A stretch of 64,000 bases of DNA from an uncultured Nitrososphaerota archaeon. Lineage in GTDB: Archaea > Thermoproteota > Nitrososphaeria > Nitrososphaerales > CADDZS01. Below, piece after piece: positions 31,468 to 52,547 of the stretch. Where the stretch lies: contig CAWCYI010000004.1 of the NCBI GenBank assembly GCA_963799845.1, positions 1,056,001-1,120,000 on the forward strand, written 5' to 3'. The translations under genes and the position numbers were made by a program. Below the pieces are notes generated by a model. The model did not search any database, had not been told where the DNA came from, and saw only the letters and a program-made list of their open reading frames with translations. Each line of letters starts with the position of its first letter. Positions within the stretch are counted from its first letter, which is position 1.

Positions 31468-33007
31468 TTGAAGGAAGGAAAGATGGTAGACCATCGGGGT
31501 AAGGCTATCATTGCATCGACTATCGCAATACTGATAGCTTTGACCATCGGACTAGGGATCTACTACATTCAACCTGTAGGGTCTGGGGGTATTTCTGTAA
31601 CAACGATAAAGATGCCTAAAGGCAACGGAACAGATCAATATCCCGTGACCTCCGACGATACAAATTCTACATTGGGCTTACAGCTTCAACTTTCGATAGG
31701 CTCCACTTTGTATAATCCTGGCGATAACGTCTCAATCAATATTACGGAGTACAATATTCTTGGAACGCAAAACAACGTTACAGCGTCAAATAATTGGCCA
31801 AACGAGACGAGCCCAATAGCAGTCTGCGATCCGATCTATCCGCTGCGCGTCGGAATCATCAGTGGCTTTTACGATTCAAACAACATTTCTCGAATCTCCT
31901 CGACCCAGATCGTCCACTTTATCGACCCGAATTTGGTGTACCCATGTCCTGCTATTCCGGTGATAAATTCCTACAATTTCCAGCCCAATAGTGACAATGC
32001 AAGTGCTTTGTGTTCTCCTACAGTTTCTAACTGCTACTACCCTATGACACATTCAGTCGATTTCAACGGAAGCTGGATAGAACGAAACGATTCGGGAACA
32101 AACACGTCTGCGACGCTTCAGGATGAGTCCAGGCGTATACACTGTTGCCGGGGGTGACGAGTGGGGAGATCTCACGCTGTTGCATTTTGAGGTAAGCACG
32201 ACATCGAACATTTTGGAAACCACGACAAATACTACAAACAGCTATCCACCTGGTTGTGACTCGCTGGGCTGCACTACAGTCGGCACCACGACGTCGAGCA
32301 TTTGCTCGGTTTCGGCGGAGCCAACCGGTTTCTACCTCCATGTCATAGCGGATGGAACTTCTGATCCTATTCAGGGAGCAAGACTAAACGCGACGCTAGT
32401 GAATGGATGCGGTTATCCTCCCGCCAGCCCGGATTATCAGATCATCACCACGAATTCGACTGGGTGGGCCTCGGTTTCTATTCCGCAGAATGCCTCAGGA
32501 GCTTTCTCATTTATCTTCAACGTTCAGTTTCCCTCCGCTAATTTTTCAAAAACTTTTCAAGTAGGGTGGGCTCCGCAGCAGGGAACATTCGTAACGCTGA
32601 GTTTGCCGTCGGGTGCCGTCAGCGTCAATTATCGCTTCCCTATCACCTGCAACGGCGTTTGCTACTATCTGGATATTTCTGAAGAAATTTCTGTCGTGCA
32701 GCCGACTGGTGATTACATAATCCAGCTCTGGACAAACAATACCAATTCAGAGCCAACGATCTCAAACATTACGCTTCTAACACAACCTGCAAACCGAACC
32801 CAGATCATCCAGTTTTACTTGCCGGTCGCAAGCTATGTATTTGTCAGTCCAACATTCACTCTGGTCCCGAACAGCAACGGCACGCTGTTTTACCTCACTT
32901 CGGGTAATGGGACGAGGATCTCTACGACTATTGACACAACTAATAACCTGCTCTACACCAATGAAAAAGTCCACGGTTGGATCGAGATCAATTGCTTCAT
33001 AGCATGA
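31468..33007 (+). CDS. Anchored surface protein: GDEWG domain + prealbumin-like domain + C-terminal domain; frameshift at ~32120
   Basis: ORFs 31468-32157 and 32123-33007 together give one complete GDEWG domain, as in paralog 51390-52547. Confidence 0.75.
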
Positions 33008-33062
33008 TCTAGACCTTCCGAGCCGCCACGGTACAGTTCACCTAGTATAATGAAGACAAGAT

Positions 33063-33308
33063 TCACAGGAGAAGAGCGCCAATAGAATGCGGACGATCCG
33101 GTAATAAGGGCAGAGATGGGTTGCAGGTCCAGGAGTAGGTACCGGCATATTTCGTTACGCCATAGTGAATCAGCTGACAGCTCAATGACTTGTAAATTGT
33201 GGTCGCTGTCCCTAGAGTTATGCTACCGACGTAAACAACGGAAGCTGCAAAGACAAAAGCTCCAACGAGCATGATGCCGATAGCAAGTACTATCCAACGA
33301 GTAGTCAT
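33063..33308 (-). CDS. Small anchored hypothetical protein
   Basis: N-terminal TM helix; Cys pair. Confidence 0.5.
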   Translation of the reverse strand: MTTRWIVLAIGIMLVGAFVFAASVVYVGSITLGTATTIYKSLSCQLIHYGVTKYAGTYSWTCNPSLPLLPDRPHSIGALLL

Positions 33309-33488
33309 CCTGTTTACTCAAGTGGGATCAAAGCCTATCCATACTTGAATCTTCTTTTCAGAACACTTCTCTCACCATTTGATTATGATTTTCATTCAGC
33401 TGAGAACCTCCAGTATAACAAAATTATGGCACCTAATGATCAGTAAATTCGACAGTCTCAAATAACGGTACAACACAACGATCTGGAC

Positions 33489-34010
33489 ATGTCCCGGAGA
33501 ACGCTGATGTGGGATGGCCTGGGTCTTCTTTCATTCATTTCCGGGTCGCTCTTGATCAGCAGTGCATCATCTCCGTCAATGTATGTCTCCCCGTACTGCG
33601 TCGGCGGGGAGTTGAATTTTTGCCCGGTGCTTTCGGAATTTAACTGGTCTCCCTGGTTTTTCGTCCTCGGAGTGCTCTTGGTATTTCTCGCCTACCCGGT
33701 TGCGCTCGCGGGATCTGACAAAAATCTCGATGAACCGCTCATTCTTAACCGAACCATTTCGGGAATCTCTTTCATGCTCACAGGTGCTGTGGTAACGATC
33801 CTCGGCGTGGAAAGCTTTCAGGAAGTCCAATTCATGGTAAATTGCCCAGTGAATTACTGTTCGACCGGCATATTCAGCCCGGTCTATCTCCTGAGCTGGA
33901 TTCAGATTTTCTTCGGTCTTTCTCTTGTAGCGGTCGGCGCCTTCCTTCTGGAATCAAGACGGTCCAAAAAGATGCTGATGCAGGAAACAGCTCAGCAAAT
34001 AACTGGTTGA
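33489..34010 (+). CDS. 4-TM membrane protein with Cys-pair loops
   Basis: Two TM-loop(C..C)-TM units. Confidence 0.65.
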   Translation: MSRRTLMWDGLGLLSFISGSLLISSASSPSMYVSPYCVGGELNFCPVLSEFNWSPWFFVLGVLLVFLAYPVALAGSDKNLDEPLILNRTISGISFMLTGAVVTILGVESFQEVQFMVNCPVNYCSTGIFSPVYLLSWIQIFFGLSLVAVGAFLLESRRSKKMLMQETAQQITG

Positions 34011-34048
34011 AAAGAATGATAACGTGATCTTTCTGTCGGTTGAACATA

Positions 34049-34456
34049 CTAACAGTCTATTGCCACATTTGATTGTTCCGAGGAAAGCGATAATCCATTA
34101 ACTGCCCATGCGAAGACATTGACAGTGTAGTTTCCATATGGCAGAGTTATGATCACGTATGTAGTTAGATTTTGTCCGCCAGATACAATGACACTAGAAG
34201 TGGAGACCTCGAGTGTTTGTCCAATTGAGTTGTGAAATACACCGAAGACGATTGCATTAAGCGAAATCGCCAAATTATTTGTAAGTGGAACTTCAATCGT
34301 TTGGTAGCCGAGCGGATAACACGATGCTGGTGATGGAACCGTGATTGGGTCCAAAAAATTTGCGCCAGTACTTGCCAAAATTGTAGTGTTCGATCCACCA
34401 ATCAGCAATATACCAACGATAATTAAATTCAACAATTTCATTTGAAGACAGTTCAT
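34049..34456 (-). CDS. Exported Ig-like domain protein
   Basis: Signal peptide; beta-rich, VFHNSIGQT...GNYTVNVFAW. Confidence 0.65.
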   Translation of the reverse strand: MNCLQMKLLNLIIVGILLIGGSNTTILASTGANFLDPITVPSPASCYPLGYQTIEVPLTNNLAISLNAIVFGVFHNSIGQTLEVSTSSVIVSGGQNLTTYVIITLPYGNYTVNVFAWAVNGLSLSSEQSNVAIDC

Positions 34457-34547
34457 ATCCCTTGTCTACCCATCAGCATGGGCTAGACGATCCTTTCGTA
34501 ATCATGTGCAATAAGCGTTCCTAAATCGAGAACGTGTAGTTTGATAC

Positions 34548-35861
34548 GTGGCTTCAAATATGGCCGATGAGCATGACTTGGTCATGAAATTGAAGAACGG
34601 GTTGGCGATCAGTCAAACCGCAACTATCATTGTGCTTGTCCTCATAATTGCAGGTGTTTCCGTCGGATTCGGATCCGGCTACGTTGAAGGTCAGCAAGGA
34701 AAGACGACGATAACAACTACAACTTCGCAGTATGAAGAGTCCCAGCAAACGATTATTTCGTTTCAGACGGCTACTACGACTGTTTCCAATTCGACCACGA
34801 TCTCCGAATACCTGGGTGCTGCTTCCACGACGGTAACTTCGACTCTATTCCAGACAAACGTAGTCAGCGAAAACGATTCGCTGTCGAATTTGGTGGTGGC
34901 CAACGTCACTGTTGACGGATTTCCAGACAGCATCGGAATCAACACGAATACCGATGTGGTGTACGTCGAGTACTCCTTCAATACGACGAACCTTGCAGTA
35001 ATCAATGGAAGTACAGATTCGTTGATCACGAGCATACCGCTGGGGTCGGCGACGCAGGCGACTCCCATAGTGAATCCGGATACAAACACGGTCTACATAG
35101 GAAACGTCATAATCAACGGAAGCACGAACGAGGTTTCCCAGTACTATAACCAGAGCTTGACCTTCGTCGCTGCCGACCCAAGCTCAAACGTAGTCTATGC
35201 GATGAACACGACGGGCTACGCTACAAACAGCACTACCACGATATTTGAGGTAAACGGCTCGAACAACAAGATCGTTAGCTCCGTCAGTTTTGAGGGAGAA
35301 CCCGCGGCTGGAGACAATCCAATCGCGATGAACGAGCAAACCGGAATACTCTACCTTGCGGTATGCACGAATGAATGCGGCTTTTTGGAACATTCTATCA
35401 TTGGAATCGGCCAGACCTCTTCCGGTCTCACGATTTTATCCCAGATTGCACTAGACCAGCTGGTGTTCAATATAGCAGTTGATCCTTCGACAAACATGAT
35501 CTTCGTCACTGCACTACAAAACCTGCTCATCGCTATCAACGGAACAACCGATCAGATTGTAGATGAGATTCCAATTACGGCGTACGCAAATGAACTCCGG
35601 GGAATCACAGTCGATCCTACCGGGAACGAAATTTTTCTGGCTGGTGGTCCCGACTGTCAAAGCTTTTCAGGCTGCGGAGCTAACACACTGTACGTAGTGA
35701 GCGAAGGAAATTACGGAATCTTTGCGATGTTCACGAGTCCCAATCCGTTCATCCTTCAATTTGACCCCGCGAATAATCAGACGTACGCCGTTTTCTATTT
35801 CTCTGATTTCGTGGCAGCGCTGAGGATACCACACTACAACGAGACGTTCCTGCTTCCGTAG
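34548..35861 (+). CDS. Anchored YncE/YVTN-like beta-propeller surface protein
   Basis: Repeats of VNPDTNTVY / VDPSTNMIFV / VINGSTD; Thr-rich stalk. Confidence 0.85.
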   Translation: MASNMADEHDLVMKLKNGLAISQTATIIVLVLIIAGVSVGFGSGYVEGQQGKTTITTTTSQYEESQQTIISFQTATTTVSNSTTISEYLGAASTTVTSTLFQTNVVSENDSLSNLVVANVTVDGFPDSIGINTNTDVVYVEYSFNTTNLAVINGSTDSLITSIPLGSATQATPIVNPDTNTVYIGNVIINGSTNEVSQYYNQSLTFVAADPSSNVVYAMNTTGYATNSTTTIFEVNGSNNKIVSSVSFEGEPAAGDNPIAMNEQTGILYLAVCTNECGFLEHSIIGIGQTSSGLTILSQIALDQLVFNIAVDPSTNMIFVTALQNLLIAINGTTDQIVDEIPITAYANELRGITVDPTGNEIFLAGGPDCQSFSGCGANTLYVVSEGNYGIFAMFTSPNPFILQFDPANNQTYAVFYFSDFVAALRIPHYNETFLLP

Positions 35862-35876
35862 ATTCGTTATCACGAA

Positions 35877-36701
35877 TTAGTTCGTCTGATTTGTCGTTGG
35901 CGACGTAACGACAAAGTGCAATAGGACCATCTGTCCCCATTCGTCCCCGGCAGCAATCGTGTAGGCTCCATCGCTGAAGGGTGTCGAAGAGATGGTGATA
36001 TTTCCAGAATTTGACTCATACAAGCTCACGAATCCTGTTATCACATTGGAAGATGTCAATGCCGTATTGTATGTTATTCCTGAAGAATTCTCGAAAGCTC
36101 CGTAAGCTGCTGCCTGCGAACTGTTTGGCTGGAAGACGTAGTTTCGAAAGTCAAGATTGGGACAATATGAGGGTGAGCTGATACTGACATTCATCGGAAT
36201 CGAAGATGAAATGTTAGCTTGGGTATAGTAACCGCTGGAAACTAGGACAGATTCCCAAGCAGGGCAGGGGAAAAAATCTCCGGAGAAGTTTTGAAGGACT
36301 GGAATCGCCCAACCAGAAGCTCCGGTTACGTTGTTTATCCTCGACAATGTATTGAAAAGAGAGACGGAGATGTTGACCGCCTGACCGCTTTGAATTCTCG
36401 AGGAATTTATTGAAAGTTCAAGCTTCAACGCCAAGGATGAATTTGTAGTCTCGGCGAAAGTATCGTTGGCTGTTGAATCGGAAAGATTCTTGGTCGTAAT
36501 GTTGACCTTGACGGAACCGTTCGTGCGAGTTATCATAATGCTGGCTAGGACAGTGCCGATAAGAGCTACGGCAAAAAGAAATGCCACGAGCGAAATTATG
36601 GCAAAATGCGAGATTCTACCGCTTCTTGCGAATTTCAAAGGACTACTGCCACTTTTATGAAACACGAATGGATCCTCATTCTCATTGGAAGGACCTCTCA
36701 A
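35877..36701 (-). CDS. Anchored surface protein, single GDEWG domain
   Basis: GAYTIAAGDEWGQMVLLHFVV; conserved Cys pair; SGYY and FQP motifs. Confidence 0.8.
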   Translation of the reverse strand: MRGPSNENEDPFVFHKSGSSPLKFARSGRISHFAIISLVAFLFAVALIGTVLASIMITRTNGSVKVNITTKNLSDSTANDTFAETTNSSLALKLELSINSSRIQSGQAVNISVSLFNTLSRINNVTGASGWAIPVLQNFSGDFFPCPAWESVLVSSGYYTQANISSSIPMNVSISSPSYCPNLDFRNYVFQPNSSQAAAYGAFENSSGITYNTALTSSNVITGFVSLYESNSGNITISSTPFSDGAYTIAAGDEWGQMVLLHFVVTSPTTNQTN

Positions 36702-36832
36702 AGTTAGGTCAGAGGGCAGGCATCAATCGCAAAGCTCCTTATCTTCCATCTTGATTTTCACGCGGAGCCATCCTATAAAGTTCTAGTCCTCAGAACAATC
36801 AGATCTCATCCTCTTTACTTCCGGTCTAGATC

Positions 36833-37306
36833 TTACTCCGAAATGAGCGAGCCTGAAACTGACTCACCGTTAGCCAAGACAATCACGTAGTTCCAATCCT
36901 CTCCCGCCGTGATATTCACAGGAAATGCGGTTCTTGGATAATAGGTTAAGTTAGTTACTTTGCCAGAAGCGATTACATTGGCTGGAGAATGAACTGAGAA
37001 ATCAATCAGACTGGTCGAGTTTTCTCCGTCCTGCCATGTCGTTATTGTTATTCTCTCCTCCGTGACTGATAGCGAAGTTACATATGTTTCTGCTTCCGGA
37101 TTATTGAAAGATATCGAGAGGTTTGCTTTCGGTGGATTGGAGGACGACCCAGTGAGCCCATCGTAAAAGTTGGCCGATGAAAGGGTGAGCCCCGGATAAC
37201 TGGCATCGCAACCCAAACAGGTTTCCAAGGTTGCAAAGTACAGAGTTCCAGCTATCACTGTGACTGCCAGTGCGAGGATCAGGAGATTTCTTGCTTGGAA
37301 CTTCAA
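36833..37306 (-). CDS. Exported protein, possibly pilin-like globular domain
   Basis: N-terminal TM helix, CxxC, beta-rich C-terminus YVIVLANGESVSG. Confidence 0.6.
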   Translation of the reverse strand: MKFQARNLLILALAVTVIAGTLYFATLETCLGCDASYPGLTLSSANFYDGLTGSSSNPPKANLSISFNNPEAETYVTSLSVTEERITITTWQDGENSTSLIDFSVHSPANVIASGKVTNLTYYPRTAFPVNITAGEDWNYVIVLANGESVSGSLISE

Positions 37307-37498
37307 TCGAGGAATACGATATTTCGTCTCACTAACGTTTTGGTCTTCTGGAGCACGAATCGTGTTTCGAGTTCTCGATCGTGTTCATTCTACGTACCCA
37401 TATGAGTTCCGAAGGAGCTAACCGAACCCGTTCTAACTCTTGAATTATTTGAGCTAAAGATTAGTCTCAAATATAACGGTCTCTAGCTATGCTGTAAC

Positions 37499-38041: not shown

Positions 38042-38158
38042 TACCTAGAAAGTTAACACTCAGTTGACAGGACACACCGATTGAAAGTAAAACTAGGATG
38101 CCTTTAATTCTCAACGAAACCTAAATAGAAGAGTACTGATTACGAACTCTCGCCTATT

Positions 38159-39055: not shown

Positions 39056-39305
39056 AAAAGCCACTTCGTATGAATCATAAATGCTTCGCTCGGGCCGGTG
39101 TCGCCCCAACCGGGAGTGTTTCTCGGTTCGATGTGCGATCAAAAGCGATCCCTCGACTGTTAATTGGGGATCCCACAAACTATCTGGAATAGAGCAAACT
39201 CAAAAACGAGTTTTCTCCAAGAATCCTAGGGCGATTTCTGTTTTCTGTAATCGATGTGAAACGATTATAATTCGTCTGAAACGAGTTAACGAAACAACGT
39301 GGTTT

Positions 39306-40085
39306 ATGATGAAAAACTTGAAGGTGTTCTTGAGCGTTTTACTATTCGGAGGGATGTTGTTACTTTTCACCGCGGAAACATTTCCTCTGACTACCGTCGC
39401 AGCATCAACGCAGTCTCCTCTGGCATCGACTCTCTATACCGGATACCAGGTGGTTGGTCCCTATACGACTTTGAGGGTCAAAGGTTCCTGGGTAGTCCCT
39501 ACTGCCAATTGCGCAGCAACGCCAAACTCTGTCTCGAATATCTCCGTGATCATCGACGGCATTAATGGCGAGGGCGACGCGATGGAGATTGGCACTTATC
39601 AGAACTGTGTCAACGGAGTTGCGGTCTACGGAGCCTTTGTGAATCTCTATCCCATGACTACATTCTACGGAAAGGGAGGCATCTCTAAGGTAGTCATTCA
39701 TCCCGGTGATATAGTTGAGGCCCAGGGCACCTGGAGACCTTCAACTCAAACGCCAGTAAACTGGAATACTAATTTCATCGATGAAACCACAAAAGTACAG
39801 GTAGATACAAACGCGCGCACAAGTTCTGGATTCAAGCCGGTCCTAGATTCCGGAGCAATAATTCTTAGTTCGGACGGTCATACTCTGACAGCTTTGAGTA
39901 CGATAGATTCGGGTCAACGTTACACGAAAGTTAATCCGTCTGATCTAACCGGACCGCAGCTGGCAAAGTCGACCTTCGGCGAAACTGGTGCCTTGGCTGG
40001 CTATACCCTCATCGCTTGGCAAATTCCTGGAACAACCTTGGGTCCATTGACAAACAGCGGATCCAGCTTCCAGATAACTGCGTAG
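39306..40085 (+). CDS. Peptidase G1 (eqolisin) family homolog, catalytic motifs degenerate
   Basis: Signal peptide; YTGY...VKGSWVVP...C...VIIDG...EIGT...C...YGAF..YP...PGD framework; start taken as ATG 39306. Confidence 0.7.
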   Translation: MMKNLKVFLSVLLFGGMLLLFTAETFPLTTVAASTQSPLASTLYTGYQVVGPYTTLRVKGSWVVPTANCAATPNSVSNISVIIDGINGEGDAMEIGTYQNCVNGVAVYGAFVNLYPMTTFYGKGGISKVVIHPGDIVEAQGTWRPSTQTPVNWNTNFIDETTKVQVDTNARTSSGFKPVLDSGAIILSSDGHTLTALSTIDSGQRYTKVNPSDLTGPQLAKSTFGETGALAGYTLIAWQIPGTTLGPLTNSGSSFQITA

Positions 40086-40229: not shown

Positions 40230-41546
40230 TCAACCGGTTTCGCCTGAAGCATTTTGAGCAGGCACGGACTCGGCAATAAGTTGACCGTCTTCTTCTACGT
40301 GCTGTTCCTGTTTTTCCCCAACATGGCTCTTTGATTCTGACTCGATCTTCTCCAGAGAGCGGATGATTCGGTCAATTTCCTTCACCCCTTCAGAAACCGG
40401 CGCGGTGGCCTTTGTCCCCGGGGCTTCCTCGATCGGACCCGAACTTTTCATCATGCTTTCTTTCTTACCCTTTGGAGCAAAACGTTCAGCTCTAATCTTG
40501 GTCGGAATCTCTTCGGCGAAGTGTAGACTCAATGTTTTGCTGTTCTGATCATACTTCTCGCCCACCAGCATCATCTTGTTCCCGTTGCTGCTAGCTTCTT
40601 CCAGGAGGCCCGCCGCGAGGCCCTCGACAAACTGATTGCCGTACGCGAGGTCGCCCTCCAAAGTTGGCGGGTCTGATATTGTCACCGCCCCAAATCTTCC
40701 TTCCATCGCGCTTCGAAGCTCAAAGGTCCCCCATCCCGCGGACATGAGGAACGCCTGAGCGTTTTCAATAAGCGGACTACCCCTTATCTTGCCATAAATC
40801 TTCGCTCCAATCTTGAAGACCTTGGTGTTACATGTAGAGCAGGTCCCTTGCAAGGCATGCGTTCGGTTCGACAAAATGACCTGCCTCGGATTCTGGATCT
40901 TTCTCATCATTCGGCACTTCATGCAATAGGCCTCCTCGATCTTTTGATCAGAGCTAACTCCCTGACCGTAATAGTAGATCGAATACTCAGGTTCGTAATC
41001 CTGGTTCAAGAATTGGCCGAGTTCCCGTACTATTTGGTGAGCGTATTCCCGTCCCTCCTGATATAGGGCAGAGGTGCCTGTAGATCCTGTTTCTTTTGCT
41101 AGGCGCCTTCCCAGATTGATCAGCGTGCCAGAGTGCAGCGAAACTGCAGGACGTTTATTGTTGAAAGCGATTCCCGCCATTCTTCTTCCAAATAGTCGAC
41201 CATTAATTTCGCAGTACTCTGCCGACATTACAAATTTCATTGTATGCAGTCGAACCGCGAGCTCGACGGGCCCCAGGTCGGCGTTCTCAAGGTTGCAGCA
41301 TATAGAAAGAATGAACTTGTTTTCGGGCGCGTTTATGCTGCTATCAAGAGCCAGTAGCATCGCACCATTTTCGATGAACACGTTGATAATCTGATTCTGG
41401 GTATAGGGAACGTTTTTACCACAAATCAAAAATTCATAATCAAACATTTTTGCTGGAAATGAAAAGCCGATGCTCTTCGGATAGTGATCTGAGATCATCT
41501 TTTTTTCTTGCCCGGAGCTGAAAAGTTTCACAACTTCTTCAATCAC
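40230..41546 (-). CDS. ACT-like + V4R-like protein with inserted DUF5679 zinc finger
   Basis: LYQEGREYA...AGWG...FVEGLAAG V4R pattern interrupted by EAYCMKCR...GTCSTCNTKVFKIG. Confidence 0.75.
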   Translation of the reverse strand: MIEEVVKLFSSGQEKKMISDHYPKSIGFSFPAKMFDYEFLICGKNVPYTQNQIINVFIENGAMLLALDSSINAPENKFILSICCNLENADLGPVELAVRLHTMKFVMSAEYCEINGRLFGRRMAGIAFNNKRPAVSLHSGTLINLGRRLAKETGSTGTSALYQEGREYAHQIVRELGQFLNQDYEPEYSIYYYGQGVSSDQKIEEAYCMKCRMMRKIQNPRQVILSNRTHALQGTCSTCNTKVFKIGAKIYGKIRGSPLIENAQAFLMSAGWGTFELRSAMEGRFGAVTISDPPTLEGDLAYGNQFVEGLAAGLLEEASSNGNKMMLVGEKYDQNSKTLSLHFAEEIPTKIRAERFAPKGKKESMMKSSGPIEEAPGTKATAPVSEGVKEIDRIIRSLEKIESESKSHVGEKQEQHVEEDGQLIAESVPAQNASGETG

Positions 41547-42262: not shown

Positions 42263-42318
42263 TCGAACAAACTAAATTATGATTAGAGCTCAAATCCAAA
42301 TGCCAGAAATGATGACGG

Positions 42319-44071
42319 TTACCGCCAGATGACAGTCTCGTCGGCCGGGCTGTGTCCGGAGTAATAAAACTCCACCTCGTAGTTTCCGAGATAAGAAAAA
42401 GTCATTCCTTTGTAGGTCTCCCCGAAAGTGTAGAGACTCTTCCAGAAGGAATGTGAACCGTTGATGTACGAGGCCGCAGAGATGCAACCGCGGGTGCCGT
42501 TCAGGTACTATGTTCGGGCACTCGACAAAGACATGCCAGTTTCCATCCGTTATTGGATATGCGCTCGAAACTCCAAACTGATAGAACGGAGCGTAGCCGA
42601 TAGGAGGATTGCCCGCTCCAAGCAAGCCGGCATCCCAGTAATGATTCTCTATCTTTGGCGGAGTGAAGCTGTCGTAGAGAATCCAGGGAGTCACGCTTCC
42701 GTTGCTCTCGTAGTGAATCCGGTAAAACCATTGAATGTCCTGGGAGTTAGTCCAGTTCATTTGAAGCTCAACCCAGTTTGACAGTGCTCCCGCGGGCAAG
42801 TCCGACGATCCAAGATGCAGCAGCTGCTGCCAGCTGTAGCCACCGCACGCCATGATGTAGTCGCATGCCCACCAAGCTCTTGCCAGGACCGCTTCGGTCC
42901 CGTTGCTGAACTCGATTACATCGGCACGATAGGCGAGATCCAATCCATCCTTACAGCAGTTGGGCGATTGATCTCCGACTCCGGCGGCGAGAAAATCGTT
43001 CGGGTACTCATTTTGCGAGATGGTGGTATTCCCTAGACTCACGTTGATTCCGACTGATTGCGATACCACTCTCGGTATCGCCAGATAACCCGCAGAGTAC
43101 ACAAACGTGTGGCCCACCTCCAGAGGAGAGAAAGCAGAATTGGAGACTCCGGAAAACCCGTTCATGACTGACAACTGATAACTCCCGGTGAAGAAGAGGC
43201 TCAAGAGTAAGACGATTGCCACAGCCATGGTTGCGGCAGTTATAATTCCGGGCGCCTTCCTAGCAAGTCCGTTAGAAGTCAAAACAGCTCGTCGCCTCTG
43301 AATTTCGAGAACAATTGCAGGAGCGCAAAATGCAGCGGCGAGCAGGAATATCGATACGATTGACGTTGGATAGTTAGTACAGTTCTCGCACGGAATCTCT
43401 ACGCCGAGACCGATCGCAAGGATCACGCCAGAAATGCCAGCGAAGAGCTTCGAAGCAACTCCGCTCATGGTTCCACGATCGAGAATCCACATCGAACCAG
43501 CTAGGCCGGCTGGTGCTCCAGCGAGAAACCACTGGAGATAATTTACCGGATAGTCCGCGCTCACGCCGGCAAATATGTGCATGACCGGAAAGAAACTTAG
43601 GGCAAAGCCAGTGAGTGCCGTTACGCCCAGTTGAAATGGCATGTCAATTGTAGATCGTTTCAGATTGCTCCATGTCTTCATAGAAGCGGAAGAGGTTATC
43701 ACCGCCAGGGAGGCAAACAGCAGAAAGTCTCTTAGGGGTCCGAGTCCGTCGGTTGAACTAATGTAACATTCCTTCATCGTGCACAGGGGTGCGACGTATA
43801 CTGTGACAGTAAATATCAACGACCCAAACAGCGGCGGAAGAATGACAGCCTTTGTGTTTCTGCCCACAACAAGGGCGGCCACGACTCCGGCAACGCAGAA
43901 CCATATGATGTCAAACCAGAACCTATCGACTGAAAAAGTGCCGAAAGTGGGGCTGGCTATTGCGTAATAGTGGTAGGTGAGCTTCTCGAAGACTATGGGT
44001 GGAATGGAAAGGATTACTGTTGCCAGTATTACTCGAAACAGCAGGTTCTTCTGGGTAACGACCTTGCACAT
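42319..44071 (-). CDS. Multi-TM protein fused to extracellular Trp/Cys-rich beta domain; frameshift at ~42505
   Basis: About 9 TM helices, then DQSPNCCKDGLD...AWWACD...; removing one base at GTACC gives ...LNGTRGCISAASYINGSHSFWK...IWR* ending at 42319. Confidence 0.7.
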
Positions 44072-44074
44072 GTG

Positions 44075-45452: not shown

Positions 45453-45679
45453 AGTCGAAGGGTATTTTTCCATCCGAAGACAGAATTCGGGCTCTACCAA
45501 AAAACAGCTATTTAGTGAATGGAAAATTCGAGCACCGGGAGATTCCGTTTCAAATTATCAATGACTTGATCTGATACTTTACTTGGATTGATTCTGTCGG
45601 AAGCAAACACTCTCTGTTCTAATTCGAGAAACAATCTCAATGCTATGTAGGTTCAAATAATACAGCTACAAACATCTGT

Positions 45680-46519
45680 TTGGATAGATTTTTGCAATCA
45701 CGGCTCGCGGCACTCGTCGCCGCCATTATAGTACTTGCATTGGCGATAGGGGCAACTATGGGATACACTTTCTCCTCGCAAAGAACATCCACTGTAACTG
45801 ATACCGCGACTATAATAAGCTCGCAAACCTCTTCGGTAACCCCCATACAGTTAGATTCTACAACGGTTTCTCAGACGACCACTATTTACCAAACAGTCAC
45901 ACGAGTGGTAGCCGGTGCCGAAAATGAATGCGAATTTACCGAAACTTGCAGCGTTCAAAGTCCTCTGGGTCTCGAACTGTTGCTCTCGGTAAACTCGACT
46001 CAACTCAGTCCAAACAACAGCATTTCCCTGAACATTACCGAGGTCAACATTCTTTCGACCGCAAACAACGTATCATTTTCCAATGCGTGGGCGATTGAAG
46101 GATTGGAGCAAATGTGTGTTTTTGAACCCGCTACAGGTTTCGCAGTATTCAGTGGATACTTTGCACTGAACAATCTTTCTTCCGCAAAGCCACTCGATCT
46201 TTGGCCAATAGTTCCGGAGTGTCCCGCCTCGTTCATATTCAATGGGACAACGATTGTTGGGATTTTGCAAAATGTGACGAGTTATTCGTTCCTTCCAAGA
46301 AGTGATGTCGCAAATTATTCCGCGTATTATATCCCAGAATCTTCCAATAATTCCGCGCTTTTGTTTGGCAAGTTTTCAATGTCAATGAGCACAATAAGAA
46401 ATATCTTTACGAACAATTCCTCGGAACCCACACTTAACTCGGTCGCACCAGCCGTTTACACTCTTGCTGTTGGCGATGAGTGGGGTGATCTTGTCTTGCT
46501 TCACTTTTCAGTAACTTAA
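45680..46519 (+). CDS. Anchored surface protein, single GDEWG domain
   Basis: PAVYTLAVGDEWGDLVLLHFSV; Thr-rich stalk. Confidence 0.8.
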   Translation: MDRFLQSRLAALVAAIIVLALAIGATMGYTFSSQRTSTVTDTATIISSQTSSVTPIQLDSTTVSQTTTIYQTVTRVVAGAENECEFTETCSVQSPLGLELLLSVNSTQLSPNNSISLNITEVNILSTANNVSFSNAWAIEGLEQMCVFEPATGFAVFSGYFALNNLSSAKPLDLWPIVPECPASFIFNGTTIVGILQNVTSYSFLPRSDVANYSAYYIPESSNNSALLFGKFSMSMSTIRNIFTNNSSEPTLNSVAPAVYTLAVGDEWGDLVLLHFSVT

Positions 46520-46563
46520 CCAACAGAGCCGTATTCATAAGTTTCTAAAACAAGTGAAGGCAA

Positions 46564-46824
46564 TTGGAACGTAGGATTCTGATTTTTATTATCTCAGTAA
46601 TTGCAATTATAATTGTCATCTCTCTATTTTTTACAACTTCTTACAACCCTGATAACATGCTAACCGAAACAGTCTGTAGCGAAGTTGCCACAACTGTTGT
46701 TGGCGCAACACACGTAATTTCCAATTCTACGGGAGAAACAAGTTACACAGTATCAATGACATTAACTTACACAACAATTTCCACTATGATATATCACGCA
46801 GGAACTATGCCCTTATGTCCCTAG
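46564..46824 (+). CDS. Small anchored Thr-rich protein
   Basis: TM helix plus Cys pair. Confidence 0.55.
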   Translation: MERRILIFIISVIAIIIVISLFFTTSYNPDNMLTETVCSEVATTVVGATHVISNSTGETSYTVSMTLTYTTISTMIYHAGTMPLCP

Positions 46825-46877
46825 AATAACTGGCTTCTTACCCATCCTAACCTTAACGCACCTAACTTCCTAGATTG

Positions 46878-47390
46878 TTAATGTCTGTTTCTTTCAACTA
46901 GCTCCTGTTGTTGGCTGTGACTTTCACGTTGTAGTCTAATGCCGCCGATAGTGTACAGGACTATAGCGGCGGCAACCACCAGCAGCCCAATATCGGGAAC
47001 AGGAGCATAACAAGTGGAACCACAATCCAATTGCGAAAAGAAACTCAAGAATCCAAGCAAAAGAACGATATCGAGTATCATCACCGAGCCTGCCGCAATG
47101 GTTAGTCGACGTGAGTCCCATCGTTTGAAAATGACTACTACGCCCATGAGTAGCCCAACGACGTACAGAAATCCTGTGAAAATATTGTAATACAAAATAT
47201 TGAATCCGGGGCCAGCAATTATTGCTCCCGCGGAATAATACGTCGCTGAACCGTTGTAAGGCGTTGGAAGATAGAAAACCGGAATGAAAAGTCCTACAGC
47301 GACTAAGATAAGGAGAAACAAATAGGTAATTCTCTCTCTTGATAAGTCAAAGGTAGATCTGCGGATCCCAAATTTTTCCTTGTTCTGCAT
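46878..47390 (-). CDS. 4-TM membrane protein
   Basis: Hydrophobic helices; CGSTC loop. Confidence 0.65.
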   Translation of the reverse strand: MQNKEKFGIRRSTFDLSRERITYLFLLILVAVGLFIPVFYLPTPYNGSATYYSAGAIIAGPGFNILYYNIFTGFLYVVGLLMGVVVIFKRWDSRRLTIAAGSVMILDIVLLLGFLSFFSQLDCGSTCYAPVPDIGLLVVAAAIVLYTIGGIRLQRESHSQQQELVERNRH

Positions 47391-47412
47391 GGTTACACAC
47401 TCTTAGATCTTT

Positions 47413-48519
47413 TCAACCAGCATACTGAAACAAAAACTGCTGCTCCGAATATACTGTCCCGTTGTGTTCGTAGCCAATGAAAATAGCATAATTTCCTGGA
47501 CTGAGATGATCCGTATTGGCAGTCAACTCAATGCTACAAAACTGCCACGGAGAGTTTATAGAATCGTGCAGAGTTGAGGCTGTCTCGTTTGCTGTGATGT
47601 ATGGCGAGCTGGTGTTAACATAGAAACTCCCTGGCAATAGAGCAGTAATATTTCCAATGTGAATCGAGTAATTCACCCCGATCGAGGGATTGGAATGAGA
47701 CGTCGATCCGCCTGTTGAATTTAGAGCGCTATATGTATCATTTGCAGGACCTGCAATTGAAGGATAGGCGATGCCCAACCCCGTTACACCAATGATACTC
47801 TCGCCCATGTTCTGGTCGGATGTGGTACAACCATAGTTCGATGAGAGACTGGGAGAATTGAGAAACTGCCGAAAGTTATCTCCTCCTATTTGGGATGGGG
47901 AAAATCCAATGGCCAGAGGAAATAGACTCGGGCAGAAAAGTGGTGTTTCCAGCAGATAGAAACCGTCAACTGAATCATTGGATCTTATTGTGTAGGAAAC
48001 GACTGCGCTTGATTCATAAGAATTTAGTACAAAGTGGCTCCGGCTCGCAGTAACACCGACCGCCTGAGCTTGCAAAAGATAGGACGCGTTCCCATTTTCC
48101 AAAGTCACGGAAGATGAAGATGAAGACTCATTTTGCGGTTGAGCAAGCCAAACGGCAGGATTAATTGATTGCGAAAATGGTGTCGCCGTTTCTGGCTCCG
48201 CATAATAAATTACACACAATGTCGCGGATGAGCTAGCATTCATCAATAAGACAGTGAACTTTGCCTCTTGCGAGAAATTATTGCTTGGAAAGGGAGTCGG
48301 AGGATACGCGGTAGTACAACCTCCCGTGCCGGCATTATTCACCGGTGAGATCCAAGGTGTGTGTGGTGCAGTCCCATAAAACGGAGCATAAACGAACCCC
48401 TGCCCTACACCGAAAATGATTACAAATGACAACATAATTGCAAGCATCAGTAGTACCCTAAAGCCAGTCAGCATAAGGTTGGTTGTGCACTGTACAAGCA
48501 AAAATTGCGTGGGAGCCAC
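47413..48519 (-). CDS. Exported Ser/Asn-rich multidomain surface protein
   Basis: Signal/TM helix; many N-x-S/T sequons; Cys pairs. Confidence 0.7.
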   Translation of the reverse strand: MAPTQFLLVQCTTNLMLTGFRVLLMLAIMLSFVIIFGVGQGFVYAPFYGTAPHTPWISPVNNAGTGGCTTAYPPTPFPSNNFSQEAKFTVLLMNASSSATLCVIYYAEPETATPFSQSINPAVWLAQPQNESSSSSSVTLENGNASYLLQAQAVGVTASRSHFVLNSYESSAVVSYTIRSNDSVDGFYLLETPLFCPSLFPLAIGFSPSQIGGDNFRQFLNSPSLSSNYGCTTSDQNMGESIIGVTGLGIAYPSIAGPANDTYSALNSTGGSTSHSNPSIGVNYSIHIGNITALLPGSFYVNTSSPYITANETASTLHDSINSPWQFCSIELTANTDHLSPGNYAIFIGYEHNGTVYSEQQFLFQYAG

Positions 48520-48560
48520 TTAAATTCTTGCTACCATAAAATGGACGTGGAATACATCTA

Positions 48561-48578
48561 GACTGCCGATTGGCAGTC
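48561..48578. other. Perfect 7-bp palindrome GACTGCC-gatt-GGCAGTC in divergent intergenic region
   Basis: Seen directly; possible operator or hairpin. Confidence 0.4.
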
Positions 48579-48792
48579 CATCTGCCCCTAGGAGACTGCG
48601 CGCTTAATGCTAGAACTTTGCAACTCGACCGAGCCTTTTGGAGAAGTTAAGCTGCAAGAGGAAATGATTTCGTGAATTGCTTTGTCGAATTGCGCGATGC
48701 ATCTGCTCTGGTGATCAAAGCAGAAATTCTATACTAAAACATGAAATATCTCGTGACTGTATGAAATAGGTTTGCGGTAGCGAGATGCAAAA

Positions 48793-50572
48793 GTGACAGC
48801 CGTTAGGAACAAGTTTGTGATCGCAATAGTCGCTGCAATAATTGTTATCTCGGCTGTTGTGAGTGCTTATCTCATCTCGGGAACCTCGACCACGCTTGCA
48901 GTGCAAACCACAGGCGTGACTACAAATACAACATCATCTGCTGTCGAAACAACAGTTGCTGAGACCAGGAATTCTACCTTGGACTTGGAACTTTCTCTCT
49001 CGATCAATTCCACAACTGTTGAAACAGGCCAGGCGATCAATATCTCCCTCTCGTTGCAGAATACATTGCCCCGAATTAACAACGTATCCGCCGAATGGAT
49101 TTGGGCATTTCCATCCCTGCTCAATTTTTCATATTCCATCTTGCCTTGCCCCAGATGGGATACCTTCCGAGTCTTCAACGGCTATTATTCGAAGAATAAC
49201 ATTTCAAGCGCCGCGCCTCTCTATCTCTAGCCGATAGCCGAAGGTTATCCCTTGTGTCCAAACTGGAATTTTAGCAACTATCTCTTCCAGCCTTCCAGCA
49301 GTACGGTGAACGTGAGTAACACTTCCCCTTCGAATTATGATAATTCATTCAGCACGGCAGAAAGCCACTCGCTAGCCGGCTATTACTTCCCGAATCAGGG
49401 TACACCGGGCTCAAACGAGTTTCCTCCCGCCACACCTTTTCCAGTCGGTGTCTTCACTATAGCTGCAGGAGATGAGTGGGGGCAACTCACGATCCTTCAC
49501 TTTAATGTAATGCAGGGCTCAAAGACAAATCAGACCGCTAGCTTCTCCACATGCCAGGCTGTCGGCAGAGTTAATTCTACGATATCGACCGGAGGAAACA
49601 CAATCGGCGGGCCGATCGCATACGATTCACACGACAACGAGATTTACGCGGCTGGCACGAGTTTCAACTACCAAGGACCCGGACAGTCAAATTCGGTTTA
49701 TGCAATCAATCCTTCGACTAATTCTTCAACTGCCGCGATCGCGGTTGGCAGCGAACCGACAGACATTGCTTTCGATCCGAACAACAACAATTTGTACGTC
49801 ACAAACTTTGGTTCAAATTCAGTTTCAGTAATTAGCGACGCTACGAACAAGATAATCGGAAACATTTCTGTCGGAGCAGGCCCGATCAGGATAACGTACC
49901 GATCCCTACAACAAGGAGCTCTACATCTCAAACCGCATTTCGGGCACGGTTTCCGTGATCAACGCAACAACAGATATGGTCGCATCAAACATCGTAGTAA
50001 GCGGTTCTCCATTCGAGATAGTCTATGACTCGTTCAATCACGATCTCTATGTCACCGATGGTGCGTCCGGAAACGTCACGATTATTGATAGCAGCTCAAA
50101 CAAAGTCGTGGGAGGTTTTTCTCTTGGACAGGGTTCGGGAATGATTGCATACGATTCTGCAAATAACTACATGTACTTTTTCCCGCAAGACTCGCAAGTG
50201 CTCTACATTATCAACGGTTCCAATAATCAGGTTGTCGGAAATGTAAGCGGGATATATGATTTGAATGCGATCGCTTACAACCCTTCGAATGATGACATCT
50301 ACGCCGCCGGGAATGCAACAGACGGATTTCTCTATATAATATCTGGCAGCTCCACTAACAGTAGCGAAATCGTTTCTTCGGTCTACGGGCAAGGCTGGGT
50401 GCCTGTCGATTTCGTGTACGTAAACGGTTCGATGTATCTTGGCACGAATTATGGAAACGCGATTTACGTTTTGACTACAGAGGGAACGAGCACAACATGT
50501 ACCAACTCTAACTCTACAGTGACTTACATAGGATCCATCGTGACTATGATTATTACAACTTCAGACGGTTGA
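48793..50572 (+). CDS. Anchored surface protein: GDEWG domain + YVTN beta-propeller; in-frame TAG (49228-49230) and frameshift at ~49900
   Basis: ORFs 48793 and 49252 are in frame (APLYL*PI vs paralog KPLDLWPI); LYVTNFGSNSVSVI repeats continue in ORF 49955-50572. Confidence 0.78.
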
Positions 50573-50749
50573 ATTTACCAACCTATTCAATCATGAATTC
50601 ACTCTTTTCACGCAATCTAATCCTCATTCGAGCAGTTAGCCCTAATATTTGAAACTATACAGTAACAAAACAGTTTTCAGAGAAGGAAAAGGAATGGTCT
50701 TGGGTACTGTTCTAAAGACTAGAACCTTATAGGATGCCATCATTTGTAG

Positions 50750-51292
50750 TTGTTTGTCATGAATAAACTGGTTGTTGTCACGGGCGCTGTTGGAATAATC
50801 GCATTGATTATTGGTGTTGCAATAGGCACTCAAATTCCGATCAGATCCACGTTTCCAATAGTGAGCATCACTGCAACTTCAACCCTGACGGTTACGACAT
50901 CTTGCAGCACTACATTCAACAGCATCGCCTGCTTTACAATTAGCGGGAGTTCTACAGGAGAAAGTTCCTGTCAGTTCATTACCGATGCAGGTCTGTTCTT
51001 CATTCGAGTCCTGAATGATTCCGGCGCTCCGGTGGAGGGGGCCTCCATCTCGGCGAATTACAACGAACCATTTTGTCCTGGCATGACCGTGTACACATCA
51101 ACACGAAGCCCACTTATTACGAATGCGAGCGGCTGGGCAGTTGACGATTGGAGTTTAATTGGGAACTATACCTACTACATCAACAACGATTTCAATCATC
51201 CGGTTAATGTCTTCCTGACATACAACATGTCAACATATGTCAGCGTAAGAATTCCATCGTACAACATCACGACCCTCTACGAACCGGATTGA
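50750..51292 (+). CDS. Anchored surface protein with prealbumin/carboxypeptidase-regulatory-like domain
   Basis: FFIRVLNDSGAPVEGASI...TNASGWA. Confidence 0.7.
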   Translation: MFVMNKLVVVTGAVGIIALIIGVAIGTQIPIRSTFPIVSITATSTLTVTTSCSTTFNSIACFTISGSSTGESSCQFITDAGLFFIRVLNDSGAPVEGASISANYNEPFCPGMTVYTSTRSPLITNASGWAVDDWSLIGNYTYYINNDFNHPVNVFLTYNMSTYVSVRIPSYNITTLYEPD

Positions 51293-51389
51293 AAGAGCTA
51301 TCCAAGAACAGCCTGTTCTGCACCTGCTTTGGTGTAGTAAAAAAAGTAGCACTAAATACCAATGACATGCTTACCTACTCAGCGGGAAC

Positions 51390-52547
51390 ATGGCAGTATA
51401 TGGGAAAACGATCATTGCCTCAGGAATCGCAATAGTAGTTGCCTTGTCAGTTGTTTTGGGCTTTTACTTCATTCAGCCACAACTAGCGAGTCAGGGCGCA
51501 ACATCGACGACCAAGACTACCTCTGTGAATGTCAACGGGACCAATCAGTACTCTAACCTACCAAAGATTTCAAGCGCTGTAAATTCAAACTTAGGCCTGG
51601 AAATGTACGTTTCGTTGAATTCCACACTTGTTAATCCAGGTGAGAGTATGCTTGTGAACATCACCGAAATCAATACACTTTCCAGACAGAGTAACGTGTC
51701 CTCAGCTGGGGATTGGCCTATCAAGGGGCTCACTCTTAGCGCGTGCGGATCGCTAGGTTATCCAGTAGGGGCAGAAATCTTTCAGGGATACTACGATTCT
51801 TCCAATATCTCATCTGCAAATGCTCTGAGCCTCTTCGCCTCAGGCATCTACTCGTGTCCCGCGATCTTTAACGTGGAGTACTTTGTCTTTCAGCCGATGA
51901 GCGACAACGGTACGATCTTCGCAGACAACGGGAACGGCAGCGGTGTCCCGTGTTGTAACGCCATTCCCGGACAGCCATATCCAATCACAGGAATATTGAA
52001 TGTCGGAGGTTACTGGGACAGTCAAAACAAAGAACACAACCTAATCCCAGGAGTCTACACGGTCGCAGCGGGAGACGAGTGGGGAGACATTGTACTGCTG
52101 CATTTCATCGTAACCACGTCAGTCATCTCGGAGGCAACGACAGTTTTCGGTTCCGTTTCGGTGAGTGGTTCGAGCGCTCTTTCAACATGTACTCAACTCG
52201 AGACTGCCCCACTATTCCTGACAATAAAGGCAGCTTCAACTGGAGACCCAATAAATTCTGTTCCGATTACTGTCCAAAAGTTGACTCCTCAAAATCTTTG
52301 CGAAGACAATGGCAACGCTGGCTCCAACAGTTCTGATCTCGGCACAATGGAGACAGATGTAAACGGGACAATTGAATTGCAATGCTGCAGCGGTGATGAA
52401 TTCTTGTTCAACATAACCTATTCTGGAACTAGCTATTACTTCAATGCCATTTCCGAAGGAGCTGAAAGTGCCGAGTGCATTACTTTGTTCCTTCCAACTT
52501 TGGAAACAACTACAACGTACTCCCCACAGTTTCAGTATGAGTGCTAA
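51390..52547 (+). CDS. Anchored surface protein: GDEWG domain + prealbumin-like domain
   Basis: PGVYTVAAGDEWGDIVLLHFIV, then STGDPINSVPI...TDVNG. Confidence 0.82.
   Translation: MAVYGKTIIASGIAIVVALSVVLGFYFIQPQLASQGATSTTKTTSVNVNGTNQYSNLPKISSAVNSNLGLEMYVSLNSTLVNPGESMLVNITEINTLSRQSNVSSAGDWPIKGLTLSACGSLGYPVGAEIFQGYYDSSNISSANALSLFASGIYSCPAIFNVEYFVFQPMSDNGTIFADNGNGSGVPCCNAIPGQPYPITGILNVGGYWDSQNKEHNLIPGVYTVAAGDEWGDIVLLHFIVTTSVISEATTVFGSVSVSGSSALSTCTQLETAPLFLTIKAASTGDPINSVPITVQKLTPQNLCEDNGNAGSNSSDLGTMETDVNGTIELQCCSGDEFLFNITYSGTSYYFNAISEGAESAECITLFLPTLETTTTYSPQFQYEC

Follow-up and report, generated by a model that had tools for sequence, protein, structure and literature searches.

Five genes in the window, by which we mean the whole stretch of 64,000 nucleotides analysed here from an uncultured Nitrososphaerota archaeon, share a domain of about 180 residues whose C-terminal end reads YTVxxGDEWGxxVLLHF. 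The domain defines a real family that is unnamed in Pfam and NCBIfam. We consider it somewhat probable that this is an old family of membrane-tethered extracytoplasmic glycoproteins, which act as stable binding or adaptor modules of the cell envelope. The family itself, its fold class, anchoring signals, composition, selection regime and distribution are documented here; that the domain binds something, and what its target might be, we infer.

The five window genes and their relatives

All five genes proposed in the first-pass annotation were located, and the domain is present in each. They are listed together with a nearby enzyme gene.

31468..32157, plus strand: first piece of g1, with a signal-anchor helix, a Ser/Thr stalk and the GDEWG domain through the end of its variable block
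32123..33007, plus strand: second piece of g1 in the +1 frame, with the PGVYTVAGGDEWGDLTLLHFEV hairpin and then about 260 residues of C-terminal domains
35877..36701, minus strand: g2, intact, 274 aa from a TTG start, consisting solely of anchor, stalk and a single GDEWG domain (35904-36443)
39081-40085: gene of a G1 (Peptidase_A4) enzyme
45680..46519, plus strand: g3, intact, 279 aa; an anchor and a long Thr-rich stalk precede its single GDEWG domain (45956-46516)
48793..50572, plus strand: g4, which joins an anchor, a stalk and the GDEWG domain to a beta-propeller-like part at the C-terminus
51390..52547, plus strand: g5, intact, 385 aa; anchor and stalk are followed by the GDEWG domain (51582-52115) and, C-terminal to it, a Cys-rich domain (52116-52544)

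Two of the five window copies are truly broken, and individual copies are therefore dispensable. The first piece of g1 runs into a frameshift near 32110-32130 and then a stop, and the GDEWG codons follow at 32153-32166 within the second piece. Since a short-read contig (X1 record 1) spans 32000-33709 with 0 differences from the window, this frameshift is not a long-read error. In a related strain (X3), 13 differences are found at 32776-32857, and 12 of them affect third codon positions in the frame of the second piece, so this piece was under coding constraint. The second broken copy is g4 (GDEWG codons at 49468-49481), which carries an in-frame TAG at 49228-49230. Its apparent second frameshift is an assembly error near 49899, where the window assembly holds one surplus base that is absent from short-read contigs of two runs (X1, X2); in X1 record 8, which spans 47799-50159, no letter is changed and there is one gap. 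The g1 frameshift, the g4 TAG and the spurious g4 frameshift had all been overlooked in the first-pass annotation.

The C-terminal part of g4 gives weak Pfam matches of the NHL/YNCE/lactonase type at 49252-50025. The g4 DNA was not found in five same-genus genomes (58-87% complete). For the C-terminal part of g5, language-model comparison offers CarboxypepD_reg and DUF2606 (0.89-0.90) as leads only. The closest relative of g3 is L102, at 57% identity. In g2, whose GDEWG codons lie at 35935-35948, the anchor is present only if translation begins at the TTG at 36701; P0001, the publicly called gene, begins at Met56, just past the helix.

The window contains the coding pattern GGN GAY GAR TGG GG at 5 sites, where shuffled sequences predict 0.04, and the five sites do differ in synonymous codons as had been claimed (GGT/GGG/GGC/GGA/GGA, GAC/GAT and GAG/GAA). 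The genome as a whole holds 13 loci with the domain. Among its 9 intact copies, the invariant residues are L6, N31, N38, W45, G71, N77, C94, Y161, T162, D167, E168, W169, G170, H176, F177 and V179 (numbering of the g2 domain). Across 74 family members, only C60, C94, Y161, T162 and W169 remain invariant, while G166, D167, E168 and G170 are kept in at least 90%, H176 in 70-90% and Q105 in 50-70%.

A profile search recovers 1651 clusters at E<=0.001 among 1.84 billion public representatives, 268 of them at E<=1e-30, and 223 GDEWG loci were confirmed in species genomes. The statement that no named family is recognisable holds for Pfam and NCBIfam, none of whose models match the domain. The only hit of a sequence-profile search of the PDB was arrestin, which is not significant (E about 0.07-0.1, 47 columns), and a literature text search for 'GDEWG' returned only an unrelated match. 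The family was likewise not found in the available parts of PMC5767755, PMC4836417 and PMC10640624.

Predicted fold and location in the envelope

According to AlphaFold2, the domain is an Ig-like beta-sandwich, as the first reading of the sequence had suggested. The g2 model is confident (pLDDT 89.8, pTM 0.84); that of g5 reaches pLDDT 84-98 per 10-residue block within the GDEWG domain and falls below 50 in the C-terminal part. Both have the same strand order, with GDEWG as the turn joining the last two strands. Searches with the two paralogue models returned 675 and 422 solved chains at Z>=5, mostly Ig, Fn3 and macroglobulin (MG) domains, so that confident two-sheet models and solved Ig-like matches go together in both cases. 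The closest solved folds are macroglobulin domains and BsuPI of Bacillus subtilis at Z 7.5-8.4, a non-specific range that the tool itself rates as possibly reflecting a mere common arrangement. In the PDB, Foldseek found nothing beyond a weak similarity to the Fn3-like C-terminal domains of GH3 enzymes (TM 0.3-0.35, rmsd 9-12). For a homodimer of the g2 domain, complex prediction on alignment A4 gave no answer (score 0.01, mark 0.42), which speaks neither for nor against a dimer.

An N-terminal hydrophobic anchor helix is visible in all five window proteins (in g2 only from the TTG start), in agreement with the anchors first claimed for the whole set. The many sequons noted at the outset are also borne out: per 100 residues, family proteins contain 2.6-5.5 sequons and six cytoplasmic window proteins 0.2-0.5. 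Charged residues make up about 10% of family proteins as compared with about 25% in the cytoplasmic ones, and Ser, Thr and Asn together about 30% as compared with about 16%. Anchor signal, dense N-x-S/T sequons and low charge are, at the level of sequence, those of extracytoplasmic envelope glycoproteins, and the sequons suggest that family proteins are N-glycosylated. Among the homologues, a hydrophobic h-region followed by [GAS]C within 50 residues occurs in 16 of 22 bacterial and in 2 of 59 archaeal open reading frames; this lipobox arrangement predicts that the Chloroflexota proteins are lipidated. As the stalks comprise only about 20-60 residues, short members may lie beneath the S-layer, which in turn makes an outward-facing adhesive function less likely.

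These traits are common amongst Ig-like surface modules of archaea and bacteria such as PKD, Big_2, intimin D0-D1, RbmA and S-layer Ig domains, which are likewise extracytoplasmic, envelope-associated and glycosylated and often accompany beta-propellers (compare g4). Such modules align with our models at structural Z 6.2-7.3, and one GDEWG homologue also carries Big_2. In contrast to these generic modules, the GDEWG domain itself is matched by none of the PKD/Big_2-type HMMs, and the GDEWG hairpin and the two Cys are peculiar to it.

Distribution and candidate binding partners

The domain is present in 37 of 301 sampled genomes of the class. The genus holding Ca. Nitrosotalea devanaterra carries it in 18 of 26 genomes, and two other genera of the same family in 0 of 67 and 0 of 20. 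Hosts are acid-soil or peat Nitrososphaeria, including Nitrosotalea, and a narrow lineage of Dehalococcoidia; the domain is found almost nowhere else. On the basis of record titles, most of which name MAGs from acid soil, peat or fen, and of genus codes, this patchiness follows habitat rather than phylogeny. A search for amoA (PF12942) gave no match in the own genome, and control genomes were equally silent.

The cultured Ca. N. devanaterra has two GDEWG copies (L092, L103). In the available part of PMC5767755, Nitrosotalea-specific exported proteins appear among the candidate acidophily genes of acidophilic ammonia oxidisers; L092 and L103 may be among its 'exported proteins of unknown function'.

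The domain is a stand-alone module, with no conserved neighbour recurring in 80 related loci; the largest cluster of non-family neighbours is an ABC ATPase, at 12 of 81 loci. Family proteins mostly span 205-520 aa with one or two domains. The commonest architecture is a single domain in 205-260 aa, and tandem doubles are recurrent.

What such a module might bind can be approached from its conserved residues. The Asp-Glu-Trp turn could form, together with W45 and Y73, a carbohydrate- or metal-binding site for S-layer glycans, soil polysaccharide or a cation. It would fit this proposal that D167 and E168 are kept and W169 is invariant in proteins in which charged residues are otherwise rare, and that the fold neighbours include accessory sandwiches of glycoside hydrolases (GH3, GH2, dextranase) and one carbohydrate-binding module (2c4x). 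Nevertheless, the structural matches are of a general kind, neither a CBM nor a metal-site family of Pfam was matched, the domain lacks a conserved His or Cys cluster, and the turn may be purely structural. We therefore regard this specific site as a tentative and on balance unlikely proposal.

A further, still less probable role is that of a protease-inhibitor-like module, operating in the mode of BsuPI or macroglobulin and shielding the envelope from, or regulating, acid proteases that the cell itself secretes, for example the G1 (Peptidase_A4) enzyme encoded at 39081-40085. BsuPI (3isy_A) is the solved chain most fully covered by either model, with 111 of its 117 residues aligned at Z 8.3 and rmsd 3.6 in one case and 109 at Z 7.7 and rmsd 3.2 in the other, although macroglobulin domains and many unrelated sandwiches tie with it and such Z values are non-specific. 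BsuPI clusters are also found among the language-model neighbours (0.89 and 0.86). Peptidase_A4 occurs in 16 of the 37 domain-carrying genomes of the class against 32 of 301 overall, and lies within about 3 kb of domain genes in the window, in G086 and in G313 (an unpublished genome). This co-occurrence is, however, confounded by common lineage and habitat, and a local profile detects Peptidase_A4 in the flanks of only 1 of 80 related loci (L059).

Direct comparison with BsuPI, the intracellular proteinase inhibitor of B. subtilis (PF12690, PDB 3isy), further weakens the inhibitor proposal. The two domains have in common the Ig-like beta-sandwich as a fold class, a first hairpin of the form 'xxYxxGxxVxItvxxxN' and a 'PGxY' strand near the end. 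The GDEWG domain exceeds BsuPI by about 70 residues, contains a variable meander and a lobe stapled by a disulfide, and is tethered outside the cytoplasm. PF12690 matches 0 of 74 family members even at E<=10 and was found neither in 12 window proteins or 44 long homologues nor in the own genome. Profile-profile alignment of A3 and A4 against 13 BsuPI domains with hhalign gives probabilities of 8.4% and 9.5% over 26-29 columns, so membership in BsuPI by sequence was rejected.

The MG domains of alpha-2-macroglobulin, complement C3/C4/C5, TEP1 and CD109 belong to the same sandwich topology class (Z 7.4-8.4 over about 87 residues, 2.5-2.9 A). They come in extended arrays that include a thioester and a bait region, whereas GDEWG proteins have one or two domains. 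Membership was rejected here as well, as there is neither an array nor a Pfam A2M/MG match. A single macroglobulin domain is not known to be an inhibitor by itself, which also counts against the inhibitor proposal.

Variation among paralogues and the role of the family

The first-pass annotation had mainly envisaged a rapidly diversifying, immune-like or phase-variable repertoire of receptors or adhesins, with a conserved framework and hypervariable loops. The segmental part of this contrast stands: most of the variation in length and sequence falls between F104 and Y161, a block of 46-78 residues, with less of it around the two Cys. A contrast between strands and loops does not, as alignment columns average an entropy of 2.25 within predicted strands and 2.21 outside them. 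The strong variability of this one block, five copies within 21 kb and 13 per genome, the two broken window copies and a gene-sized duplicate in Ca. N. devanaterra (97.4% identity over 794 nt) would suit a repertoire.

The selection data speak otherwise. In 13 independent close orthologue pairs, dN/dS is 0.22 in the variable block versus 0.26 in the rest, that is, without any excess in the block, which is under purifying selection among orthologues. The window paralogues are dispersed across an old tree, on deep branches with orthologues in other genomes, and they lack DNA-level similarity that would point to conversion: g1 and g5 have in common one 75-nt stretch at 73%, g2 and g4 none. Contigs from four soil runs, in which rare variants are dropped, show just a single variant inside the genes of the domain. 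Because the block is under purifying selection and the paralogues are old, we do not see a hypervariable repertoire here and consider rapid diversification very improbable.

Equally doubtful is that the conserved Asp-Glu serves in self-crosslinking (by an isopeptide or ester bond) or in catalysis; an isopeptide or catalytic site had also been raised at first. Conservation of T162, D167 and E168 would fit, as would the H176 kept by all intact own-genome copies, but Q105 and H176 vary across the family, the GDEWG motif sits in a hairpin turn, and the absence of a conserved Lys makes an isopeptide site unlikely. The isopeptide pilin domains CnaA and CnaB combine a conserved Lys with Asn/Asp and a catalytic acid; a domain of this type was rejected, as Lys occupies none of the columns that are invariant or 90%-conserved in the 74 members.

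We thus return to the stable envelope module as the preferred explanation. The proteins would be held in the membrane by the N-terminal signal-anchor helix, or by a lipoprotein Cys in the bacterial homologues, and a short Ser/Thr-rich stalk would carry one, sometimes two, Ig-like sandwiches of about 180 residues, to which some members would add a beta-propeller (g4) or a small Cys-rich sandwich (g1, g5). The first 108 residues, which include one disulfide, make up the conserved scaffold together with the last hairpin PGxYTVxxGDEWGxxVLLHF, and this scaffold is probably also a common contact site. The beta-meander of 46-78 residues from FQPxS to the last hairpin is paralogue-specific and kept among orthologues. 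Such modules of differing specificity could be placed between membrane and S-layer in organisms of acid soil and peat.

We speculate, with little confidence, that the family is a niche-defining envelope component of acid soil and peat, either ligand-binding or protective, such as a shield against acid proteases or a clamp for glycans or cations beneath the S-layer. It would have originated in Nitrososphaeria and been transferred across domains to peat Dehalococcoidia with a change from transmembrane to lipoprotein anchor, and each paralogue's variable sheet would have its own target.

Should the domain be merely another structural Ig-like spacer, the result would be an ordinary one. The family would merit a curated domain entry, which would replace 'hypothetical protein' for thousands of soil metagenome genes. 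It occurs in both archaea and S-layered Chloroflexota, with a patchiness linked to habitat. Little is understood of how Nitrososphaeria of soil, among them the acidophilic ammonia oxidiser Nitrosotalea, construct and safeguard their envelope at low pH, and this unnamed family of 1651 clusters, confidently modelled and present in the cultured Ca. N. devanaterra, offers a concrete candidate for study.

Gene family and envelope island

An ORF listing together with an alignment bears out that five genes of the window, here g1 to g5, share a domain of about 180 residues with a GDEWG motif:

31468-32157 plus 32123-33007: g1, GDEWG domain gene in two pieces
35877-36701, minus strand: g2, GDEWG domain gene
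45680-46519: g3, GDEWG domain gene
48793-50572: g4, GDEWG domain gene
51390-52547: g5, GDEWG domain gene

The synonymous codon differences noted earlier between the copies are likewise real, the GDEWG coding pattern occurring five times in the window against 0.04 expected. A search of the source genome (4.6 Mb, 9 contigs, completeness 86.7%) with g2 gave 15 matches, counted as 13 loci, of which 9 are apparently intact; the exact motif is found in ten. Every member displays the N-terminal anchor proposed in the first-pass annotation, made up of basic residues and a hydrophobic helix; a Ser/Thr-rich stretch then leads on to the domain. In g2 this helix requires a TTG start at 36701, and the public gene call (P0001) begins behind it, at Met56. 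Compared with six cytoplasmic proteins of the same window, the GDEWG proteins are also as rich in N-glycosylation sequons as had been claimed (2.6-5.5 N-x-S/T per 100 residues vs 0.2-0.5), with about 10% vs about 25% charged residues and about 30% vs about 16% S/T/N.

Five further ORFs (34548, 37499, 47413, 50750 and 52541), none of which matched a Pfam or NCBIfam family, are also sequon-rich and low in charge and carry an N-terminal anchor; owing to this shared make-up, we regard 31-53 kb (31400-53400) as an island of genes for envelope glycoproteins. Both the 34548 product and the tail of g4 look like beta-propellers. Amid the island, 40230-41546 on the minus strand encodes a cytoplasmic-looking protein of 438 residues with a DUF5679 zinc-ribbon-like segment (E 1.3e-8).

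Two of the copies are broken. The reading frame of g1 shifts near 32110-32130, and a short-read contig over 32000-33709 agrees with the window without a single difference, so the population sampled there does carry the break. A related strain in X3, one of four soil sequencing runs whose contigs were compared, is about 92% identical over short contigs (32776-32857, 42842-42986, 47842-47932), and its differences are spaced in threes and are therefore mostly synonymous. Within 32776-32857, 12 of 13 differences hit the third base of a codon when read in the downstream frame of g1, a bias which indicates that this part was under coding constraint until recently. In g4, an in-frame TAG at 49228-49230, mid-domain, is confirmed by a contig spanning 47799-50159. 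What looks like another break in g4 comes from one surplus window base at 49899, which contigs of two runs leave out; without it, on our reading, the frame continues into the beta-propeller-like part. One base at 42504 is likewise left out by short-read contigs of two soil runs. The window assembly thus holds single-base insertions, which falsely break g4 and the gene of a 593-aa membrane protein (42290-44071, minus strand).

Fold and family affiliation

The family could not be named by the first-pass annotation, and database searches lead to the same result: no Pfam entry matches the domain in the window proteins, and none does in NCBIfam. Among 44 long homologues, 43 are without a Pfam match and the remaining one matches Big_2 outside the domain; across 74 members no consistent Pfam family emerges even at E<=10, and a sequence-profile search of the PDB returned only non-significant arrestin rows.

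The AF2 model of the g2 domain, built from 74 sequences (pLDDT 89.8, pTM 0.84), contains twelve strand segments and a single short helix, with GDEWG in the turn that joins the final two strands. A model of the g5 ectodomain predicts the same strand order, with pLDDT of 84-98 per block in the domain and below 50 in the C-terminal part. Foldseek gave weak matches only. In an exhaustive structure alignment, macroglobulin domains and the Bacillus subtilis intracellular proteinase inhibitor BsuPI rank first for both models: 2p9r_B (a macroglobulin domain) with Z 8.4 for g2 and 7.5 for g5, 87 residues aligned in each, and 3isy_A (BsuPI) with Z 8.3 (111/117 aligned) and 7.7 (109/117 aligned). Next, at Z 6-7, come hundreds of domains of the Ig, Fn3 and PKD types; values of this size may reflect a common arrangement only. 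Taken together, the two predicted models and the Ig, Fn3 and PKD-type domains among their matches support the earlier description as Ig-like.

Language-model neighbours included BsuPI clusters (0.89 and 0.86, below the level for more than a lead). A direct hhalign comparison with 13 BsuPI domains taken from same-phylum genomes yielded probabilities of 8.4% and 9.5%, with 26-29 columns aligned, and the GDEWG domain has about 70 residues more than BsuPI. Given this failure, the domain is best described as an Ig-like sandwich that is not a detectable BsuPI member. An isopeptide site, which had also been suggested, is unlikely because a conserved Lys is absent. The Asp-Glu-Trp turn, on the other hand, may be a site for some ligand.

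Spread among archaea and Chloroflexota

A profile built from the nine intact own-genome copies, in line with the check proposed earlier, matches 1651 representative clusters when the limit is E<=0.001, of which 1280 pass 1e-10 and 268 pass 1e-30; a word-indexed search found 17 proteins only, all unnamed or "hypothetical protein". A species-level survey with one genome per species confirmed 223 loci, of which the best 80 were kept.

Table. Record titles of the best 80 of 223 loci
Record title: loci
Thaumarchaeota/Nitrososphaer-, Nitrosotalea or Nitrosopumil-: 48
Chloroflexota (Dehalococcoidia/Chloroflexia): 14
"archaeon": 12
Bathyarchaeia: 2
Methanomethyliaceae: 2
Conexivisphaerales: 1
Terracidiphilus: 1

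Peat, fen or acid-soil projects figure in many of the titles, and the MAG AcS1-13 (L042, L052) is listed as coming from pH 4.2 topsoil (PMC10640624, Table 1). The Terracidiphilus (Acidobacteriota) label probably stems from mis-binning, since this locus (L026, on a 3.3-kb contig) is nearly identical to one from a Chloroflexia MAG (L028; branch lengths 0 and 0.016, protein 98% identical). Two of the Nitrosotalea loci belong to Ca. Nitrosotalea devanaterra, whose genome is complete (LN890280; L092 and L103, at about 456 kb and 556 kb). They are 97.4% identical over only 794 nt, namely the gene with about 60-80 nt of flank at either end, and 65 nt of its upstream side are repeated downstream in L103, which makes this a duplication or conversion of gene size.

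The domain occurs in 10 of 12 sampled genomes of the window's own family, and among 20 sampled families of the order one other is positive (2/2 genomes). The class sample contains it in 37 of 301 genomes; within one large family, the genus of Ca. N. devanaterra, recognised from genome G112 with its matches at the LN890280 coordinates, is positive in 18/26 genomes and two other genera in 0/67 and 0/20. These counts take in unpublished genomes (G001 in the order sample; G166, G262 and G313 in the class sample), and matches per genome are lower bounds, with 9-11 candidates scored. Archaeal amoA (PF12942) found no match in the source genome, but control genomes were equally silent. The GC content of about 47-48% and the large size of this genome resemble those of "heterotrophic terrestrial Thaumarchaeota" MAGs in Table 1 of PMC10640624, which we take as a lead only.

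The Chloroflexota loci are truly bacterial: type III pantothenate kinase, CoaBC, HisZ/HisG/HisD and Cas3 are encoded in the flanking DNA. Their 20 rows require two changes on the tree and lie nested within a section in which archaeal rows occur as well (unrooted, quick method). Since the domain is common in several archaeal lineages and was not detected in 250 further genomes of the bacterial class around a Dehalococcoidia carrier, transfer from archaea into a peat Dehalococcoidia lineage appears to be the simpler reading. Bacterial and archaeal members differ in the type of anchor: 16/22 bacterial ORFs vs 2/59 archaeal ones show a lipobox-like h-region and then [GAS]C.

Paralogue history and possible function

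The contrast between a framework and variable loops described earlier stands in part. The conserved part of the domain (residues 1-108 plus 156-180, g2 numbering) is distinct from a variable block at 109-155, which has zero conserved columns and a length of 46-78 residues, yet is predicted to form strands with high confidence; strands as such do not differ from the remainder (mean column entropy 2.25 vs 2.21). The proposed "diversified repertoire" is not supported where this is taken to mean ongoing diversification. In 13 non-overlapping close pairs (70-98% identical; Nei-Gojobori), dN/dS is 0.22 for the variable block and 0.26 for the conserved part, which here took in a few residues ahead of the domain. 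In a quick, unrooted maximum-likelihood tree of 104 domains the window paralogues are scattered: g3 pairs with an orthologue from another MAG (57% identity), g2 lies near two own-genome copies, and g5 falls in the half holding the Chloroflexota rows. In tandem-domain proteins, each half sits in a different, well-supported clade. At the DNA level g1 and g5 share 75 nt only, at 73%, and g2 and g4 show zero similarity. Across contigs from four soil runs of a single study, the domains of these genes show one variant (51429 G>C), which is weak evidence because contigs drop rare variants. The dN/dS values, the scattered tree, the DNA divergence and the contigs together point to old subfamilies with stable, differing blocks and not to a repertoire in rapid evolution.

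No neighbour gene recurs across 80 related loci. A gene for a G1 peptidase (Peptidase_A4, an eqolisin-type acid protease; 23.6 bits, cut-off 22.3) lies at 39081-40085, 2.4 kb from g2, and the source genome has at least 9 Peptidase_A4 matches (including C4:1476817 and C6:1011885), three of them close paralogues. The domain could be imagined as a protease inhibitor, a minor alternative with which the co-occurrence of Peptidase_A4 in 16 of 37 GDEWG-carrying genomes and its position within about 3 kb of a GDEWG gene in G086 and G313 (unpublished) are consistent; however, only 1 of the 80 related loci has such a neighbour. Acid proteases as such are in keeping with an acid-soil heterotroph. The function of the GDEWG proteins is inferred only, and the family itself is an unnamed, new variation on a well-known kind of protein module.
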